DNA of 64,000 bases from NCBI GenBank assembly GCA_003130845.1, contig QEXW01000025.1, positions 1,962 through 65,961 of the forward strand. Direction: 5' to 3'. Positions 55,573-63,822 of the stretch are shown here, piece after piece. Source of the DNA: Anaerolineae bacterium. Its GTDB lineage: Bacteria; Chloroflexota; Anaerolineae; Anaerolineales; Villigracilaceae. The translations under genes and the position numbers were made by a program. Numbering within the stretch: the first letter of the stretch is position 1; the number at the start of each line of letters is the position of its first letter. The notes beneath the pieces were generated by a model, which had not been told where the DNA came from, searched no databases, and worked only from the letters and a program-made list of their open reading frames with translations.

Positions 55573-55875
55573 ATGAATGTTAATTTTTATGCTACTCTGC
55601 GGCTGATTACCGGCAAGAAGACCGTTTCGCTTGACCATTTGCCCGACGGGGTGACCGTGCGCGAGGTGTTGGAGGAGTGTTTTAAACTGTATCCGGCGTT
55701 GCGGGCCGAGTTGATGAAAAATGACCAGGAAATGCTGGGGCATGTACATTTTTTCGTCAATGGGCGCGATGTGCCGTATTTGCCGGATGTGCTCGAGACG
55801 CGTATTTCACGCAGCGATAAGCTGGATGTCTTCCCGGCTGTGGGAGGGGGCAGCGGATGGGGCAACGGATGGTGA
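55573..55875 (+). CDS. MoaD/ThiS-family ubiquitin-like sulfur-carrier protein with a 7-aa extension after the Gly-Gly
   Basis: DKLDVFPAVGGG aligns with the MoaD C-terminus (..FPPVTGG). It continues SGWGNGW-stop, encoded by the first units of the tandem repeat. AGGAGA lies before ATG 55573. Confidence 0.7.
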   Translation: MNVNFYATLRLITGKKTVSLDHLPDGVTVREVLEECFKLYPALRAELMKNDQEMLGHVHFFVNGRDVPYLPDVLETRISRSDKLDVFPAVGGGSGWGNGW

Positions 55876-56188
55876 AGCGGATAAGCGGATGTGGGCAGCG
55901 GATGGTGAAGCGGATAAACGGATGTGGGTAGCGGATGGGGAAGCGGATGGTGAAGCGGACAAGCGGATGTGGGCAGCGGATGGGGCAACGGATGGTGAAG
56001 CGGACAAGCGGATGTGGGCAGCGGATGGGGCAACGGATGGTGAAGCGGATAAACGGATGTGGGCAGCGGATGGTGAAGCGGATAAACGGATGTGGGCAGC
56101 GGATGAGGAAACGGATAAGCGGATGGTGAAGCGGATAAGCGGCTAACTGGCTAACCGGCTAACCGGACAACTGGATAACTGGATAACT
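55854..56188. repeat. hierarchical tandem repeat: about 26 subunits (CGGATGTGGGCAG / CGGATGGGGCAA / CGGATGGTGAAG / CGGAYAAR) forming 45- and 33-bp units, then 6 x 8-bp GGMTAACY
   Basis: Read directly. 18 copies of CGGATG lie in 55854-56130. The 8-mers span 56141-56188 and end 6 nt before ATG 56195. Confidence 0.9.
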
Positions 56189-58908: not shown

Positions 58909-61900
58909 CTACCTGTTTGCCTTTCGGCGCCAAGCCAGAACGGTGGCGATGCTCCAGCCCATCGCCAGGAGCCACACCGCCATCAATAGCCATGCCGCCC
59001 AAACCTGCGCAAAGGTTGACCATTCGATGGGCAAATTGCGGATTGTCCAGACTGGAATCAACCAATTCCATACCTTTAATAACCATTCTGTGCCAGGCAA
59101 GGCCATGCTTTCATTTGCTCCAGGCAAGAATACGAACACATATCCTGCCAGCGCGTACGTGCTTGCCCCCAGGACAAGCAAGGCAAGCACCCAATTTCTC
59201 CCCGCCGCCGAGCGGACCGACGGCCACACCAGCATGGCGCTTCCCGTCAATAAAAGGAGCAATCCAATTGCATCGAGGTAGATAGGGGTAGGCGCCTGCC
59301 AGGGATTCCAAAGGAACCAGGCGGAAAGCAGGGCGGCCGCGCCCGGCGTGAATGCCCCGACCCACCAGCGTGTCCTGCGATGCCCTTCCTGTTTCCAGCC
59401 TTTCCAAACCAGGCCGATGGCCAGGACGAACAAAGCGGCTGCCCCGGCGCCAAAGGCCGTTTTTTGCACGAGGATGGCGTGCTGCTTTTCGATTTCGTCC
59501 TCATCTGGAATGGGTTTATCAGGGCAGGTGGGACGATATGGCTCATCGCCAATATAGGTCTGCCACTCGGCAAGCGTCAAGTTGCGCGGCAGGCGGCGGC
59601 AGGCTTCGGCCATCAGGTCTGCGATGCGCCAGTACCACACGCTTATTCCGTCATCAAGACCGCTGGAAATCACATAGCGCCCATCTGGGCTGAAGGCGAC
59701 GAAGAGCACAAGGTTGTCATGCGTCATGCGCGCCACCTCCGCGCCCGTCTGTGCCTCCCACACCCGCGCCGTGCCGTCCTCACTCCCGGAGAGCACATAG
59801 CGCCCATCCGGACTAAAGGCGACTGATTGCACTGCTCCTTCGTGTGTGATGCGTGCCACTTCGGTGCCCGTCTGCGCCTCCCACACCTGCGCCGTGCCAT
59901 CGCCGCTCCCAGAGACCACATAGCGCCCGTCCGGGCTGAAAGTGCTAGATAACACGCCGCCTTTGTGTCTCATGTGCGCTACTTCTGCACCTGTTTGCGC
60001 CTCCCAGACTCGTGCTAGGCCATCCAAACTCCCGGAGAGCACATAGCGCCCATCTGGGCTGAAGGCGACGGAAAGCACGAAATTGTCATGCTTCATGCGT
60101 GCTACTTCTACGCCTGTCTGTGCCTCCCACACCCGCACTGTGCCGTCATAACTCCCGGAGAGTACATAGCGCCCATCTGGACTGAAGTCAGCTGAGCGCA
60201 CCTGACCCTTATGCGCCATGCGGGCTACTTCTACGCCCGTTTGCGCCTCCCACACCCGCGCCGTGCCGTCCTCACTTCCGGAGACCACATGGCGTCCATC
60301 TGGGCTGAAATCAACGATGACCACCGGCTCTTCATGCGTCATGCGTGCCACTTTCGCGCCTGTCTGTGTCTCCCATACATCTATCGTGTTGTCTGTATTC
60401 CCGAAGACTACATACTGCCCATCTGGGCTGAAAGCAATGGAGTTCACGCCGCTCTCATGTGCCATGCGTACTACTTCAACACCCGTCTGTAGATCCCATA
60501 CCCGCACAGGCTCATCCCAACTTCCGGCTGCCAAGTATCGCCCATTCGGGCTGATGGCAAAGTAGAGCTCGCTGCCCTCCGATGGAATGATTTGCAGTAC
60601 TTCTGCACCCGGCTGAAAATTCCACACTCGAGCCGTGGTAGTAGCTCCACCGGATAGTACATAGCGCCCATCCGGGCTGAAGGCAACGGAAGTCAAGCCG
60701 CTCTCATGCGTCATGCGCGCCACTTCCGCACCTGTCTGTGCCCACCATACTCGTGCCGTGCCATCCCCACTCCCGGAGACCACATAGCGCCCATCTGGGC
60801 TGAAGGCAACGGAGACCACTGGCCCTTCATGCGTCATGCGTGTCACTTCCGCGCCTGTCTGTGCCTCCCATACCCGTGATGTGTAATCATCACACCCAGA
60901 GACCACATAGCGCCCATCTGGGCTGAAGGCGACAGCCCACACATCACCGTCATGTGTTATGCGAGCCATTTCTGCGCCGGTCTGCGCCTGCCACACCCGC
61001 ACCGTGCCATCCCAGCTCCCGGAGACCACATAGCGCCCATCCGGGCTGAAGGCGACGGATGTCACATCACTCTCGTGCGTCATACGCGCCACTTCCGCAC
61101 CTGTCTGTGCTTCCCACACCCGCGCTGTGCCATCACTACTCCCGGAGACCACGTAGCGCCCATCTGGGCTGAAGGCGACGGAGTTCACCAAGCTTTCATG
61201 CGTGATGCGCGCTACTTCCACGCCGGTTTGTGCCTCCCAGACCTGCGCCGTACCGTCATCACCCCCTGAGAGCACATAGCGCCCATCTGGGCTGAAGGCC
61301 ACAGAAGTCACGCCGCTCTCGTGCGTCGTACGCGCCACTTCTGCCCCTGTCTGCGCCTCCCACATTCGTGCTGTGCCATCACTACTTCCAGAGACCACAT
61401 AGCGCCCATCTGGGCTGAAGGCCACGGAAGTCACACCGCCCTCGTGCATCATGCGCGTCACTTCTGCGCCGGTCTGCGCCTGCCACACCCGCGCTGTACC
61501 GTCCCCACTCCCGGAGACCACATAGCGCCCATCTGGGCTGAAGTCAACGGAGTTTACATTATCTTCATGCGTCAGGCTGGCAACAGGCAAGGCTGCCAGC
61601 GCGAGATAGCGGCGCAAAGCCTGGTCGGCGCCCCAGCCGGCGCCGCGCTGCCCGGCTTCCACAGCCAATAAACCACTCTGGGTCGTGAGATTTGCAACAT
61701 CAGCATAACCACCCTCAAACTCGATGGCAGTTTGCGCTTGGGCAGCTAGTTGGCGTGCTATGGCCAGATTGGCCTGTTGTTCGGCGCGACGCCACTGGAA
61801 AAGCGCCAAGGTAGTAATCACTAGTAGGATGGCTGAACCAACCACTAGACCGGCTGTAATGCGTTGGCGGGTGCGTTCCCGCTGGCGGCGGGCTTGTTCG

Positions 61901-63381
61901 GCAGCCAGCGCGCCGGCTTTGAGAAAAGCCAAGGCTTGCGCGCTCAGCGTATCGTCCGATAACTTCTCGCGGGCGGCTGCCAGCCGCGTCCCGGTGTAGA
62001 GGTAACTGGGGTCGCGGTCATGCTCGAGCCATTCGGCGGCGTCGCGGGCAACCTGGTTTTGCAGGGCAATCCGGGCGCGGTCTTCCTCGATCAGCGTCTT
62101 CAGCCACGGCCAGGCCTGGATGAGTTTCTCGTGCGCCAGGGTGACGGTGCGTGCGCCGTGTTCGTCCTCGGCGGTGATGAGCAGGCGGGCGTCGGCCAGT
62201 TTGCGCACCAATCCCTCCATGAACGCCGCATCTGTCTGCGCCGGGATGAGTTCCTCTAAGCGCGCCGTCCGGCGGGTATCCTGCGCGCCTTCCCCTCGGA
62301 CTTCGACCAGGCTGCGGAATAGCGTTTTGGCCAGCTCCTGCTCTGCAGCGCTCAACGCTGCAAAGGCCGTCTGGGCATGACGCTCCAGCGATTTGTGCAA
62401 GCCGCCGCGCACCAGATAATCGCGCTGGGTTAGGGCAGTCAGTGTTCCTCGTTCCCGGCTCCATTCGAACAGGTCGGTCAGGGCAAACTGCATCAGCGGC
62501 AGGGCGCCTGGCTCGCCTCCCATGTCGGCAATCACCTGCGCCACCAGTTGAGGTTCGATGGGCAATCCCACCTGCTCCACCGGCAGGGCCACCGCGCGCA
62601 CCAGTTCATCCGGCTGCATCGCCCCCACCTGGAAGAATTGCTGGTTGAGCAGTTTGTTCAGCGCCCGATAAGTGGCGCAGTTGGCAACGAAATCCGAGCG
62701 CATGGTGAACAAGACCAGCGTCCGTCCGTTCTGGTGCATGGCGGCGCGGGTCAACAGCGTGAGAAAGGCCTGTCGTTCCTCTTCTTTGACGCCGGGCGCA
62801 AAGATTTCTTCGAACTGGTCAACCAACAGCACAAGGCGCTGGTCAGGTTCATCGCCAAGCAGCGACTCGCTCACTTTGTGCAGCGCCTCACTGTCACGAG
62901 CGGCGCGCTGACGCAGGTAATCACCGGTTTCGGGGGATTTCAGCCGCGAGACTGCTGTAGCCAGCGCTTCGAGCGGGTCGCGGCCGGGCGTTAGGGCTGT
63001 GTATAGCCAGCGCTCGCTGCCCCGCACCTGGCCGGCTTTCAGGGCGGGAATTAACCCTGCCCGCGCCAACGATGATTTCCCCGACCCGGACGGGCCGGTG
63101 ATGAAAATGGCGCGGCTGTCCTTCACTCGTTCGAGCAGTTCTTCCACCAGGCGCTCGCGCCCGAAGAAGCGTTCGGCATCCTGTTCGCCGAAGGCGCGCA
63201 GGCCAACGTAGGGGCAAGTGCCATCGAAAGGTTTGGGCTGAAATTCGGTGCGAATCTGGGTCAGCAGGGCCTGTACCTGTTCGACGCTGTACCCAAACGT
63301 GACCTGGTCGCCCAGAATCACATCCCGACCGGCATGGATATTCCCTATGTCACGAGCAGGCGGTGTTTCCGACATTAACAT
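58909..63381 (-). CDS. STAND (nSTAND/NACHT-like) P-loop NTPase - TM helix - 16 x WD40 - C-terminal polytopic membrane domain
   Basis: CPYVGLRAFGEQDAERFFGRE...ITGPSGSGKSSL (Walker A), LVLLVDQFEE (Walker B), TM ITAGLVVGSAILLVITTLALF (aa 508-529), 16 blades with FSPDGRYV.SGS.DGTARVWE, and about 5 TM helices in the last 180 aa. Confidence 0.85.
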   Translation of the reverse strand: MLMSETPPARDIGNIHAGRDVILGDQVTFGYSVEQVQALLTQIRTEFQPKPFDGTCPYVGLRAFGEQDAERFFGRERLVEELLERVKDSRAIFITGPSGSGKSSLARAGLIPALKAGQVRGSERWLYTALTPGRDPLEALATAVSRLKSPETGDYLRQRAARDSEALHKVSESLLGDEPDQRLVLLVDQFEEIFAPGVKEEERQAFLTLLTRAAMHQNGRTLVLFTMRSDFVANCATYRALNKLLNQQFFQVGAMQPDELVRAVALPVEQVGLPIEPQLVAQVIADMGGEPGALPLMQFALTDLFEWSRERGTLTALTQRDYLVRGGLHKSLERHAQTAFAALSAAEQELAKTLFRSLVEVRGEGAQDTRRTARLEELIPAQTDAAFMEGLVRKLADARLLITAEDEHGARTVTLAHEKLIQAWPWLKTLIEEDRARIALQNQVARDAAEWLEHDRDPSYLYTGTRLAAAREKLSDDTLSAQALAFLKAGALAAEQARRQRERTRQRITAGLVVGSAILLVITTLALFQWRRAEQQANLAIARQLAAQAQTAIEFEGGYADVANLTTQSGLLAVEAGQRGAGWGADQALRRYLALAALPVASLTHEDNVNSVDFSPDGRYVVSGSGDGTARVWQAQTGAEVTRMMHEGGVTSVAFSPDGRYVVSGSSDGTARMWEAQTGAEVARTTHESGVTSVAFSPDGRYVLSGGDDGTAQVWEAQTGVEVARITHESLVNSVAFSPDGRYVVSGSSDGTARVWEAQTGAEVARMTHESDVTSVAFSPDGRYVVSGSWDGTVRVWQAQTGAEMARITHDGDVWAVAFSPDGRYVVSGCDDYTSRVWEAQTGAEVTRMTHEGPVVSVAFSPDGRYVVSGSGDGTARVWWAQTGAEVARMTHESGLTSVAFSPDGRYVLSGGATTTARVWNFQPGAEVLQIIPSEGSELYFAISPNGRYLAAGSWDEPVRVWDLQTGVEVVRMAHESGVNSIAFSPDGQYVVFGNTDNTIDVWETQTGAKVARMTHEEPVVIVDFSPDGRHVVSGSEDGTARVWEAQTGVEVARMAHKGQVRSADFSPDGRYVLSGSYDGTVRVWEAQTGVEVARMKHDNFVLSVAFSPDGRYVLSGSLDGLARVWEAQTGAEVAHMRHKGGVLSSTFSPDGRYVVSGSGDGTAQVWEAQTGTEVARITHEGAVQSVAFSPDGRYVLSGSEDGTARVWEAQTGAEVARMTHDNLVLFVAFSPDGRYVISSGLDDGISVWYWRIADLMAEACRRLPRNLTLAEWQTYIGDEPYRPTCPDKPIPDEDEIEKQHAILVQKTAFGAGAAALFVLAIGLVWKGWKQEGHRRTRWWVGAFTPGAAALLSAWFLWNPWQAPTPIYLDAIGLLLLLTGSAMLVWPSVRSAAGRNWVLALLVLGASTYALAGYVFVFLPGANESMALPGTEWLLKVWNWLIPVWTIRNLPIEWSTFAQVWAAWLLMAVWLLAMGWSIATVLAWRRKANR
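59629..61575 (-). repeat. 16 tandem 123-bp (41-codon) WD40-blade repeats with very high internal DNA identity
   Basis: CATAGCGCCCATC(T/C)GG recurs at 59673, 59796, 59919, 60042 and onward, with exact 123-nt spacing. Confidence 0.9.
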
Positions 63382-63402: not shown

Positions 63403-63822
63403 TCAATGCCCAAATAATTTCAAAGCAAGTTGCCCCAATTGTGCTAGGACTGTGCCCAGACCGATGGCCGCTTCGATGCTTCCGCTTAGTTTTTCTATGC
63501 TCTGTTTGGCGCTGTCCAAGGTCTTGTGGATGTGTTCGCCTGGTGGAGCGGGCTTTTTTGTCTCCAGGATGGCTTCATTCACTTTTGCCTGCGCGGCTTT
63601 CACTGCTTTTGCTTGGGCAGGTTTCAATCCTGGGTGCGCCTTTAATTTCTCGATTTCCGCTTCCAGCCGTTGCAGCGCTTCCACGAATTGGGGTTGGTTC
63701 TGGATGTTCGAAATGTTCTGGGTATTAATGATTTGGTCCCCCATAATTACATCCCGGCCAGCCTGGATGCCGCCCTGGATGTTGTAGATGGGTCCACCTT
63801 GCGCTTGATGCTTCCGGGTCAT
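63403..63822 (-). CDS. small Q/N/G-rich protein sharing the AGRDVI-GDQ motif with the downstream STAND protein; helical middle, hydrophobic C-terminal helix
   Basis: 139 aa. Residues 9-43 are GGPIYNIQGGIQAGRDVIMGDQIINTQNISNIQNQ. C-terminal AAIGLGTVLAQLGQLALKLF. Ends 21 nt before the STAND ATG. Confidence 0.6.
   Translation of the reverse strand: MTRKHQAQGGPIYNIQGGIQAGRDVIMGDQIINTQNISNIQNQPQFVEALQRLEAEIEKLKAHPGLKPAQAKAVKAAQAKVNEAILETKKPAPPGEHIHKTLDSAKQSIEKLSGSIEAAIGLGTVLAQLGQLALKLFGH

Follow-up and report, generated by a model that had tools for sequence, protein, structure and literature searches.

On which side of the membrane does a STAND NTPase sense its ligand when hydrophobic segments lie both before and after its WD40 array? 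This question is raised by a gene on the minus strand of a 64,000-nucleotide stretch of Anaerolineae (Chloroflexota) DNA, hereafter called the window, which encodes a protein of 1490 aa and is preceded by a small partner gene. The features discussed below are as follows.

58909..63381, minus strand: whole gene, nSTAND1-TM-WD40(x16)-cap-5TM, a single intact ORF of 1490 aa
63403..63822, minus strand: partner gene encoding a 139-aa protein, upstream, 22 nt before the STAND start
63292..63354, minus strand: short N-terminal motif, aa 10–30, RDIGNIHAGRDVILGDQVTFG, in common with the upstream small protein
62008..63213, minus strand: nSTAND1 NTPase, aa 57–458 (PF20703, E 1.5e-111)
61861..61890, minus strand: Arg-rich stretch RRQRERTRQR, aa 498–507, predicted cytoplasmic flank of TM1
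61795..61860, minus strand: TM1, predicted signal-anchor, aa 508–529 (hydropathy and homolog conservation)
61567..61794, minus strand: linker between TM1 and the propellers, aa 530–605, containing the conserved IARQLAAQAQ
59620..61566, minus strand: 16 WD40 repeats, aa 606–1254, predicted extracytoplasmic sensor
59521..59619, minus strand: cap with the Cys pair C1261 and C1286 and an RNLTxxEW motif, aa 1255–1287 (homolog conservation)
59464..59520, minus strand: acidic/Pro linker after the cap, aa 1288–1306, DKPIPDEDEIEKQHAILVQ (sequence)
58930..59463, minus strand: C-terminal 5-TM module, aa 1307–1484 (hydropathy and homologs)
58912..58929, minus strand: basic C-terminal tail RRKANR, predicted cytoplasmic

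Architecture of the gene and its NTPase

The reading frame contains zero internal stop codons, and frame 0 had the top codon-usage log-likelihood through to the end of the gene. The parts of the protein follow in the order N-terminal motif, nSTAND1 domain, Arg-rich stretch, hydrophobic helix, 16 WD40 repeats, two-Cys cap, and five hydrophobic helices. Each sequence feature listed in a previous sequence-only reading of this DNA was recovered in place, including RRQRERTRQR ahead of the helix at aa 508–529. While the exact 1490-aa protein has no entry in a 15-billion-protein collection, the product of its neighbor does have one, so the public annotation may handle the STAND gene differently.

The NTPase scores 374.2 bits on the nSTAND1 profile, for which the curated cut-off is 27.1, and the match is full length, covering profile positions 1–378 of 379. 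Reading the domain directly reveals both a Walker A motif (GPSGSGKS, aa 96) and a Walker B–like motif (LLVDQFEE, aa 185), and its catalysis is putative. No protease domain was found in the 1490-aa protein by Pfam. The N-terminal motif recurs in the upstream small protein (12/25 residues identical, E 4e-7, BLASTP of the pair), and at other loci, the STAND proteins downstream of this small-protein family begin with the same motif. In this region, Pfam gave a weak, subthreshold match to EAD10 (PF19954) at aa 14–43, scoring 13.2 bits where the cut-off is 24.1 (E 0.09).

In its NTPase and in its order of a short N-terminal adaptor or effector, an NTPase, and a sensor of repeat or lectin type at the C terminus, the protein is like the nSTAND1 family described by Kaur, Burroughs, Iyer & Aravind 2021 (PMC8195603), which is enriched in multicellular bacteria. 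The associated sensors were described there as intracellular, and a TM helix was not discussed. However, a TM helix stands between the NTPase and the sensor here and in most of the relatives that we sampled, and the 1490-aa protein adds a C-terminal 5-TM module for which Pfam has no family.

TM1 and the WD40 array

Helices were called from hydropathy scales and charge counts throughout. TM1 (ITAGLVVGSAILLVITTLALFQ) has a hydrophobic length of 21–22 residues; in its best 19-mer, Kyte–Doolittle hydropathy averages 2.41 and the Hessa biological scale sums to -1.5 kcal/mol, and a G-x3-G motif (GLVVG) is located close to its predicted cytoplasmic end. Of 105 close homologs of at least 600 aa, 99 have a helix in the corresponding position, which argues that TM1 is more than a chance hydrophobic run. 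Likewise, about 75 of 83 nSTAND1 ORFs have a helix at this position; these were taken from genome loci of six phyla, in a sample spanning Chloroflexota, Actinomycetota, Acidobacteriota, Verrucomicrobiota, Cyanobacteria, and Myxococcales. It is the hydrophobicity of the helix that is conserved across homologs and not its sequence. In the family, the N-terminal flank holds a mean of 4.56 Lys and Arg residues (K+R) versus 2.08 for the C-terminal flank, and K+R is higher on the NTPase side in 85 homologs and lower in 7. Retention of the internal helix in relatives, a survey proposed in the sequence-only reading, was thus borne out together with a charge bias toward the NTPase.

The presence of TM1 follows the type of domain at the C terminus. 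The helix is present in every one of the 26 FGE-sulfatase members and of the 22 WD40 members caught by a repeat-motif filter, and nearly all nSTAND1 relatives with WD40, FGE-sulfatase, or BNR-like C-terminal domains retain it. The members that lack TM1 carry mostly cytoplasmic-type domains (GAF, histidine kinase); among them are the GAF/HisKA/HATPase members P0095, P0116, and one L014 ORF. Speaking against the membrane-spanning reading, NACHT-FGE proteins paired with the same small-protein family have no TM helix. The other domains found after the helix resemble extracellular types, in matches that are all subthreshold or nonsignificant; among BNR/Asp-box matches, one fell just below the Pfam cut-off and the rest were weak. 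In P0059 and P0076, a domain between two TMs is PAS/Cache-like by subthreshold Pfam matches. Against PDB sequences, this domain gave a nonsignificant LOV-domain match, and its low-confidence model (pLDDT 52.5) returned WalK, KinD, and Tlp sensors as the top Foldseek entries at E values of at least 0.045; its assignment as a Cache/PDC sensor is suggestive only.

The WD40 array follows the linker, whose IARQLAAQAQ segment flanks the TM in homologs. Pfam WD40 (PF00400) matched 15 stretches of the array (E 1.7e-162), and the 16 blades previously described correspond to exactly 16 FSPDGRY motifs, placed at a 41-aa spacing with one of 42. The repeats are near-identical, and TRF reported a period of 123 nt with 15.5 copies over the region. 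Going by this count, the repeat number is sufficient to close predicted WD40 β-propellers, probably two with eight blades each. Variation from repeat to repeat clusters at WD40 positions 2, 3, 5, 21, 23, 29, and 40. These hypervariable positions are predicted to lie on the ligand face, a pattern typical of non-self receptors.

The array is closed by the cap, of which LTLAEWQTYIGDEPYRPTCP forms aa 1268–1287. Both cap cysteines are present in 18 of the 18 caps retrieved from close homologs with a cysteine-free motif match, and a Cys-bracketed cap also occurs in 26 locus ORFs across phyla, here with a pattern that demanded both cysteines. The predicted ectodomain has three cysteines, an odd count that speaks against its external placement. 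Homologs that stop after the cap end in Pro/Thr-rich tails, which together with the conserved Cys pair would fit an exported domain.

The nSTAND1-WD40 proteins P0067 and Trichormus L072 have no TM helix. Their linker, including IARQLAAQAQ in P0067, is the same as in TM-bearing relatives, so the same kind of sensor can work in the cytoplasm. These proteins favor an alternative in which the window protein is tethered to the membrane by monotopic or re-entrant segments while its WD40 array faces the cytoplasm and senses intracellular ligands, as in Avs and NLR proteins; the literature also has STAND sensors, including FGE/FGS types, as intracellular (PMC8195603; bioRxiv 10.64898/2026.01.04.697583). 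However, the apolar helix is unbroken over 21–25 residues with Kyte–Doolittle values of 2.2–3.4, which is enough to span a bilayer and too short for a hairpin. Moreover, the relatives with a single TM would need either the NTPase or the sensor outside regardless of how this helix is drawn. We consider a cytoplasm-facing array unlikely, and the charges of the C-terminal module described below also speak against it.

The C-terminal module and the predicted topology

The module comprises helices at approximately 1308–1327, 1341–1358, 1366–1387, 1397–1420, and 1455–1484, of which the second is weakly hydrophobic (Kyte–Doolittle below 1.5), and a conserved Trp-rich loop at 1421–1454 lies on the predicted outer face. 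The five helices, the loops KGWKQEGHRRTRW, NPWQAPTP, SVRSAAGRN, and GANESMALPGTEW, and the RRKANR tail were all found as the sequence-only reading had given them, and the loops alternate between basic and neutral. The cap and an extension beyond it are likewise present, although the extension measures about 203 aa rather than about 180.

An exhaustive HMMER scan of 1.84 billion proteins returned five relatives of the module (P0123–P0127, best E 3.8e-28). In each fused relative, the module comes after WD40 repeats and a cap and has the same loop-charge pattern; this order and the basic/neutral alternation are conserved in P0123, P0124, P0125, and the L086 pair, in which a stop codon splits the module after its first helix. 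P0123 is a full-length Trypsin_2-nSTAND1-TM-WD40-cap-5TM protein. Alignment A1 of the module reveals invariant W/N/W/Y residues, and every module homolog has a basic tail. The WD40-cap-5TM order does recur among relatives, but the module is rare, the majority of relatives ending 0–16 aa past the cap. A few (P0013 and P0043) have a single C-terminal TM and a basic tail after the cap, which implies that the same return from outside to inside is needed.

Other searches with the module gave no further kin. Pfam found no family in the module and only spurious subthreshold matches in the TM linker, the cap alone matched when the last 242 aa were submitted to a word-indexed homology search, and a module scan of the genome contigs gave zero matches. 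The multi-TM tails of the other nSTAND1 proteins P0017, P0087, P0117, and P0118 were compared with the module by hhalign and are unrelated. AlphaFold2 modeled the last 222 aa as five long helices and one short helix in a low-confidence bundle (pLDDT 60.9); the structure check thus produced a helical bundle but no significant Foldseek match. Nothing in the PDB fell below E 0.4, and the rhodopsins, GPCRs, and BAR domains that were returned at TM-scores of at most 0.43 were treated as no match. The 5-TM module appears to be undescribed.

Could the last 200 aa be an artifact? Besides loss of a stop codon, the causes would be a frameshift or an assembly error that joined a separate membrane-protein gene, the two cases about which the sequence-only reading had cautioned. 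The early ends of most relatives, the stop codon in L086, and the absence of the exact protein from the public collection are compatible with this, and the coding score does drop in the last 190 aa. However, frame 0 is still the best-scoring frame over these 190 aa, and the other frames contain no plausible gene. In addition, other samples yielded three independent proteins in which WD40-cap-5TM is continuous in frame, at 27–43% identity and with E values down to 3.8e-28. We therefore regard an artifactual C terminus as highly improbable.

The 1490-aa protein thus has six hydrophobic TM-length segments, TM1 and the five of the module. Counting K+R over whole short loops and over the adjacent 15 residues of long loops gave 17 on the predicted cytoplasmic side versus 7 on the predicted external side. 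If the helix at 508–529 did not span the membrane, the module would have 11 such residues outside versus 4 inside, which breaks the positive-inside rule. The same rule is violated if the WD40 array is placed inside the cell, as three basic module loops and the tail would then be outside in 4/4 fused homologs. The loop charges, conserved across the module homologs, fit only a topology with the WD40 array outside and the C terminus inside. This agrees with the claim of the sequence-only reading that the topology is consistent only with an extracytoplasmic WD40 region, and those of its proposed checks that the analysis covered all favored its interpretation.

The conserved TM helices, the order of the domains, and the charge asymmetry are observed; together they predict membrane insertion, and from predicted insertion and the positive-inside rule follows a predicted external WD40 array. 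A membrane-spanning topology with WD40 outside is, on this sequence evidence, well supported. The cytoplasm would then hold the NTPase together with the pairing motif at the N terminus, and the helix at 508–529 would serve as a signal anchor. Everything from the linker through the 16 hypervariable blades of the array to the Cys-paired cap would be on the outer side of the cytoplasmic membrane, which the final 200 aa would cross five times to return the short basic tail to the cytoplasm. The best explanation of the locus, with a probability of about 0.72, is a polytopic membrane nSTAND1 (NLR-like) NTPase with this topology and the manner of working proposed below.

Partner gene, proposed signaling, and related systems

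The 139-aa partner protein is 100% identical to "hypothetical protein DDG60_02870 [Anaerolineae bacterium]". Besides the shared N-terminal motif, it contains a coiled coil and, at the C terminus, an invariant helix rich in Gly and Ala (family alignment A2). It has no Pfam match, and the STAND gene has no Trypco neighbor. A direct homology search found the partner family adjoining STAND-FGE genes in five other loci, one of which also has diversity-generating retroelement (DGR) genes (reverse transcriptase and bAvd), while a motif scan of 80 genome loci found no similar small upstream gene. The pairing is like that of the amyloid BASS/Bell motifs of fungal and bacterial NLRs (Dyrka et al. 2020, bioRxiv 10.1101/2020.01.06.895854) and of EAD pairs (PMC7159879), where a short N-terminal NLR motif is repeated in the product of an adjacent small gene. 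However, the motif is at the N terminus of the small protein as well as of the STAND protein and not at the small protein's C terminus as in BASS/Bell, and no Bell domain was detected in either.

We propose that a ligand would bind the external propellers on their variable top faces, upon which receptors would form clusters or change orientation within the membrane plane, with TM1 (through GxxxG) and the 5-TM module relaying the change across the bilayer. The cytoplasmic nSTAND1 domains would then exchange nucleotide and oligomerize as other STAND proteins do, and the clustered N-terminal motifs would recruit the co-encoded 139-aa protein via the shared AGRDVI(L/M)GDQ. The invariant Gly/Ala-rich helix of this protein is the likely membrane-active output; in P0123, which has a Trypco1/Pepco gene beside it, the trypsin-like protease fused to the protein would be the output instead. 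Ligand binding, the signaling route, and the effector role of the 139-aa protein are inferred.

The same topology could also serve a role other than immunity or cell death, in which the protein is a scaffold or sensor of the envelope or filament in multicellular bacteria and the NTPase assembles an external WD40 platform from the inside out. The STAND gene is surrounded in the window by metabolic and regulatory genes, with no known defense genes found, and PADLOC gave no defense-family match, returning only a WD40-driven HEAT-ARM_XIII match and weak mad8/mad3 matches; its Avs/bNACHT models did not match the 1490-aa protein. These results, and the concentration of the family in filamentous and multicellular phyla, would suit such a role. 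On the other side, relatives have protease effectors and Trypco1/Pepco partners (P0123 has a Trypco1 neighbor, and P0127 lies beside Trypco1 and BREX genes), the partner family occurs in STAND-FGE loci including the one with the retroelement, and the repeats vary at the predicted ligand face. We judge this alternative role improbable.

Prior work touches on this arrangement, and its novelty is only partial. A 2025 preprint (bioRxiv 10.1101/2025.11.14.688446) names "transmembrane STAND ATPases" fused to proteases, with Pepco/Trypco partners, as one sensor class; the phrase is used in passing, and topology and sensing side are not given. P0123, with its Trypco1 gene ahead, is exactly of that type, whereas the window protein has neither a protease domain nor a Trypco neighbor and is joined instead by a different small protein whose N-terminal motif pairs with its own. 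Doré et al. [quoted passage not shown] The present locus is linked to these through its partner family, but its sensor is a recombining WD40 array and not a DGR-mutated lectin fold. The different signaling logic claimed in the sequence-only reading is softened by these passing mentions.

Avs and bNACHT proteins similarly combine an effector or adaptor, an oligomerizing NTPase, and a C-terminal sensor, with cell death or growth arrest as the likely outcome. However, these proteins reside in the cytoplasm and detect phage proteins there, whereas the sensor here is predicted to be outside. Toll-like receptors and the Mycobacterium tuberculosis kinase PknD, which has an extracellular NHL β-propeller, combine an external sensor, one TM, and a cytoplasmic signaling domain. 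The window protein would be like them in that ligand binding outside leads to clustering of the signaling domain in the cytoplasm; it has no sequence kinship with them, its cytoplasmic domain is a STAND NTPase, and its chain re-enters the membrane five more times.

Most nSTAND1 relatives share this layout, which suggests that this branch watches the cell exterior and not the cytoplasm. More tentatively, and with somewhat less than even confidence, most nSTAND1 proteins, many of them from Streptomyces and Chloroflexota, might be "Toll-like" NLRs: type-II receptors with hypervariable WD40 or lectin-fold ectodomains that would detect non-self at the surface (adsorbing phage, foreign cells, or danger signals from lysed filament neighbors) and then trigger cytoplasmic STAND oligomerization, with the 5-TM module as an undescribed transducer or pore-forming output. 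Bacterial STAND/NLR-like immunity is now framed as intracellular recognition of foreign molecules. If nSTAND1, a large branch that spans phyla, has its sensors (WD40, lectin-fold, or propeller) on the outside, bacteria would have a surface-surveillance arm in the style of Toll-like receptors and receptor kinases, built on an NLR engine. Its triggers would then be extracellular or envelope ligands, which coexpression of phage proteins in the cytoplasm would miss, and the mechanistic question would become how binding outside is coupled to NTPase oligomerization via one TM or a six-helix set. Tractable Streptomyces homologs, such as those at L029 and L070, make this idea directly testable.

Domain organization of the STAND gene and its WD40 array

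The gene encodes an nSTAND1 NTPase followed by a hydrophobic helix (TM1), a WD40 array, a cap, and a C-terminal five-helix tail (the 5-TM module, helices C1 to C5). The ORF, Pfam, hydropathy, and sequence analyses placed every sequence feature listed by the sequence-only reading at its given position, whereas NCBIfam and PADLOC returned no specific addition for this protein.

58909..63381 (-): STAND gene, one unbroken ORF, 1490 aa
aa 57-458: nSTAND1 NTPase, full-length Pfam match, E = 1.5e-111
aa 96: Walker A, GPSGSGKS (from sequence)
aa 185: Walker B-like, LLVDQFEE (from sequence)
aa 498-507: Arg-rich RRQRERTRQR, between the NTPase and WD40 domains
aa 508-529 (nt 61795-61860): TM1, ITAGLVVGSAILLVITTLALFQ, directly after RRQRERTRQR
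aa ~600-1255: WD40 repeats (Pfam)
After the final WD40 blade: cap, ...AEACRRLPRNLTLAEWQTYIGDEPYRPTCP, then 203 aa with five hydrophobic segments
63403..63822 (-): small partner ORF, 139 aa, 22 nt upstream of the STAND gene

The five hydrophobic segments and the quoted loops of the tail were as described, but its length, put at about 180 aa, is really ~200 (203). In a 15-billion-protein collection, the exact 1490-aa protein was absent and its 139-aa neighbor, from the same MAG, was present; public annotation may treat the STAND gene as a pseudogene or give it different boundaries.

The WD40 region consists of exactly 16 repeats of 41 aa each (TRF: period 123 nt, 15.5 copies). Divergence is greatest in repeats 8 and 9, which suggests two 8-bladed propellers. 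The repeats (nt 59620-61566) are near-identical, with differences concentrated at unit positions 2, 3, 5, 21, 23, 29, and 40. Variation restricted in this way typically marks the top face, where ligands bind, in highly repetitive WD40 arrays, and in the window it matches concerted evolution in which the residues of the ligand face diversify. The homologue P0123 (L085 2136-5698) has 2-3 repeats between TM1 and the cap versus 16 in the window; either the arrays strongly expand and contract between relatives, or they collapse in assembly. The conserved cap motif RNLT (window 59521-59619) includes an N-x-T sequon between two conserved cysteines.

TM1 across the nSTAND1 family and the side of the WD40 array

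TM1 holds the top-hydrophobicity 19-mer of the protein (Kyte-Doolittle mean 2.41, Hessa-scale sum -1.5). A search with aa 1-608 returned 2496 homologues, for the most part from Anaerolineales/Chloroflexota. The internal helix picked out by the sequence-only reading is widely kept among them: one strongly hydrophobic 19-mer (KD 1.7-3.4) lies just past the NTPase, at aa ~500-680, in 99 of the 105 proteins of at least 600 aa among the best 120 of the 2496. Likewise, a genome scan that yielded 80 loci from Chloroflexota, Actinomycetota (many Streptomyces), Acidobacteriota, Verrucomicrobiota, Cyanobacteria, and Myxococcales revealed exactly one such helix, 45-85 aa past the NTPase domain, in ~75 of 83 nSTAND1 ORFs, and the exceptions were mostly truncated or contig-end ORFs. 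The residues of TM1 vary freely among homologues and hydrophobicity alone is conserved, as is characteristic of an anchor that faces lipid and not of a helix buried in a protein core. In the clade of the window protein, TM1 carries a GxxxG motif.

The type of C-terminal domain tracks the presence of the helix. It was found in 26/26 FGE-sulfatase members and in 22/22 WD40 members caught by a repeat-motif filter, whereas members with GAF and histidine-kinase domains (P0095, P0116, and one L014 ORF) are without it, as is P0067, a WD40 member missed by the filter. P0067, in which the helix is cleanly missing between otherwise conserved flanks, and Trichormus L072 are the two TM-less nSTAND1-WD40 proteins; the family can thus place one and the same sensor type inside or outside the membrane.

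A domain that uses ATP has to lie in the cytoplasm, and the K+R bias agrees with this orientation; the region after TM1 is therefore predicted to be outside. Across 102 homologues, the 15 residues before TM1 carry a mean of 4.56 K+R versus 2.08 after it, the N-terminal side being higher in 85 and lower in 7. The window protein itself has 17 K+R predicted inside versus 7 outside; if TM1 is taken as non-spanning, the 5-TM module alone gives 11 outside versus 4 inside. In some WD40 relatives (P0013, P0043, and P0090), the chain continues past the cap through a linker and a single TM helix to a basic tail, an arrangement that makes no sense unless the cap is outside.

The cap and the other sensor domains were also considered. 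Both cap cysteines occur in 18/18 close-homologue caps matched by a cysteine-free motif, and 26 further caps across phyla were found with a stricter pattern that itself requires both cysteines. Relatives that stop at the cap end in Pro/Thr-rich tails. The paired cysteines and these tails fit an exported domain, neither being proof. Other post-helix domains resemble exported types: BNR/Asp-box gave one match just below the Pfam cut-off, the rest being weak. The ~200-aa domain between two TM helices in P0059 and P0076 gave weak, at best suggestive PAS/Cache-like signals, which we counted as no evidence. Retention of TM1 (99/105), the K+R asymmetry (85 versus 7), and the loop charges lend good support to the earlier proposal that the WD40 region lies outside the membrane, and we consider an extracytoplasmic array probable (roughly 0.7-0.75).

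The C-terminal 5-TM module

An indexed homology search with the C-terminal region gave cap matches and no module matches, and the genome scan with the module gave no match. Scanning all 1.84 billion representatives exhaustively with HMMER recovered five relatives.

P0123: 1074 aa, 43% identity, E = 3.8e-28; Trypsin_2-nSTAND1-TM-WD40-cap-5TM, preceded in its operon by a Trypco1 gene
P0124 and P0125: contig-truncated, WD40-cap-5TM
P0126: fragment
P0127: 158 aa, helices 2-5 alone

The WD40-cap-5TM order recurs in P0123-P0125; most relatives stop just past the cap, and a few have one C-terminal TM helix. At L086 (3-779), a locus that also has Trypco1 and BREX genes, an ORF ending in WD40-cap-TM-RHRKG and a stop codon abuts P0127 from upstream with zero gap, so the module is split after its first helix, leaving a separate 4-TM protein by either gene fission or pseudogene formation.

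The sequence-only reading had allowed that a frameshift or assembly fusion might have created the hydrophobic C terminus. The coding log-likelihood is lower over the module, as expected of a hydrophobic segment, but frame 0 remains best through to the stop codon; together with the recurrent WD40-cap-5TM order and the shared loop alternation of the fused relatives, this rules out an artefact. Every fused copy has a basic C1-C2 loop, a neutral C2-C3 loop with a conserved AAWxxWNxW motif, a basic C3-C4 loop, a ~30-aa Trp-rich C4-C5 loop, and a basic tail, and this alternation implies a topology with the cap outside and the C terminus inside. The invariant Trp and Asn residues would lie at the predicted outer interface, adjoining the presumed place of the cap.

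The module matched no Pfam family and showed no relationship to multi-TM tails of other nSTAND1 proteins. AlphaFold2 modeled five long helices and one short helix (pLDDT 61), for which Foldseek found no credible analogue. The module may serve as an anchor, pack against TM1 as a transducer, or act as an effector.

The small partner gene and the standing of the family

The 139-aa partner is identical to a hypothetical protein from an Anaerolineae MAG and has AGRDVI(L/M)GDQ in common with the STAND protein (aa 17-26). Three parts are invariant in its family (~140-160 aa): an AGRDVIMGDQ motif in the N-terminal part, a coiled coil, and a C-terminal helix rich in Gly and Ala. Members occur in five other loci (L082, L087, L089, L090, and L091), where they directly precede STAND-FGE genes, lie between them, or follow just behind, in one case beside DGR genes, and the STAND proteins immediately downstream open with the same AGRDVI motif in the window and in 4/5 of these loci. 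The family appears to be a so far undescribed adaptor or effector of the paired-motif kind, and the 139-aa protein would be the recruited output. The pair follows the same paired-motif logic as EAD (PMC7159879) and BASS systems (bioRxiv 10.1101/2020.01.06.895854) but falls outside the definition of either. A second, different N-terminal motif, GRDVHCADFVGRDQ..TYG...DVERLIDKVLAF, is common to other STAND-FGE paralogues (L087 2078-5047, L091 861-3746) and a 172-aa protein in a related locus (L082 1569-2087), which suggests that several orthogonal motif pairs exist.

An HTH-ATPase-TPR gene, a STAND-like regulator (L081 1-2424, past the window end), lies next upstream of the pair across a ~315-nt spacer; the remaining window neighbors are metabolic or regulatory genes. 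At 55587-56146, ORFs of both strands encode short tandem peptide repeats (PLHHPLPHPLPTSA versus ADGEADKRMW), which indicates an intergenic tandem DNA repeat.

The paper defining nSTAND1 treated the FGS (lectin-fold) sensors linked to it as intracellular, with no mention of a TM helix (PMC8195603), a systematic WD40 survey did not address the question, and a 2026 survey of STAND sensors presents them as recognizing molecules inside cells (bioRxiv 10.64898/2026.01.04.697583). Doré et al. (2024, PMC10907252) predicted their nSTAND1 targets to be cytoplasmic, whereas for one NACHT-CLec DGR target the NACHT and CLec domains were predicted to be periplasmic. A November 2025 preprint listed "transmembrane STAND ATPases," with no further analysis, among sensors fused to Pepco-associated proteases (bioRxiv 10.1101/2025.11.14.688446), so TM-bearing STANDs are already on record. 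Our literature search found no earlier account of the family-wide TM rule, the sidedness argument, or the 5-TM module. The window gene belongs to a known family but has a new architecture, with the 5-TM module as an addition and a small partner of its own; the ligand, signaling mechanism, and biological role of the protein are matters we infer. The membrane-receptor nature of the nSTAND1 family in general seems to be under-appreciated.
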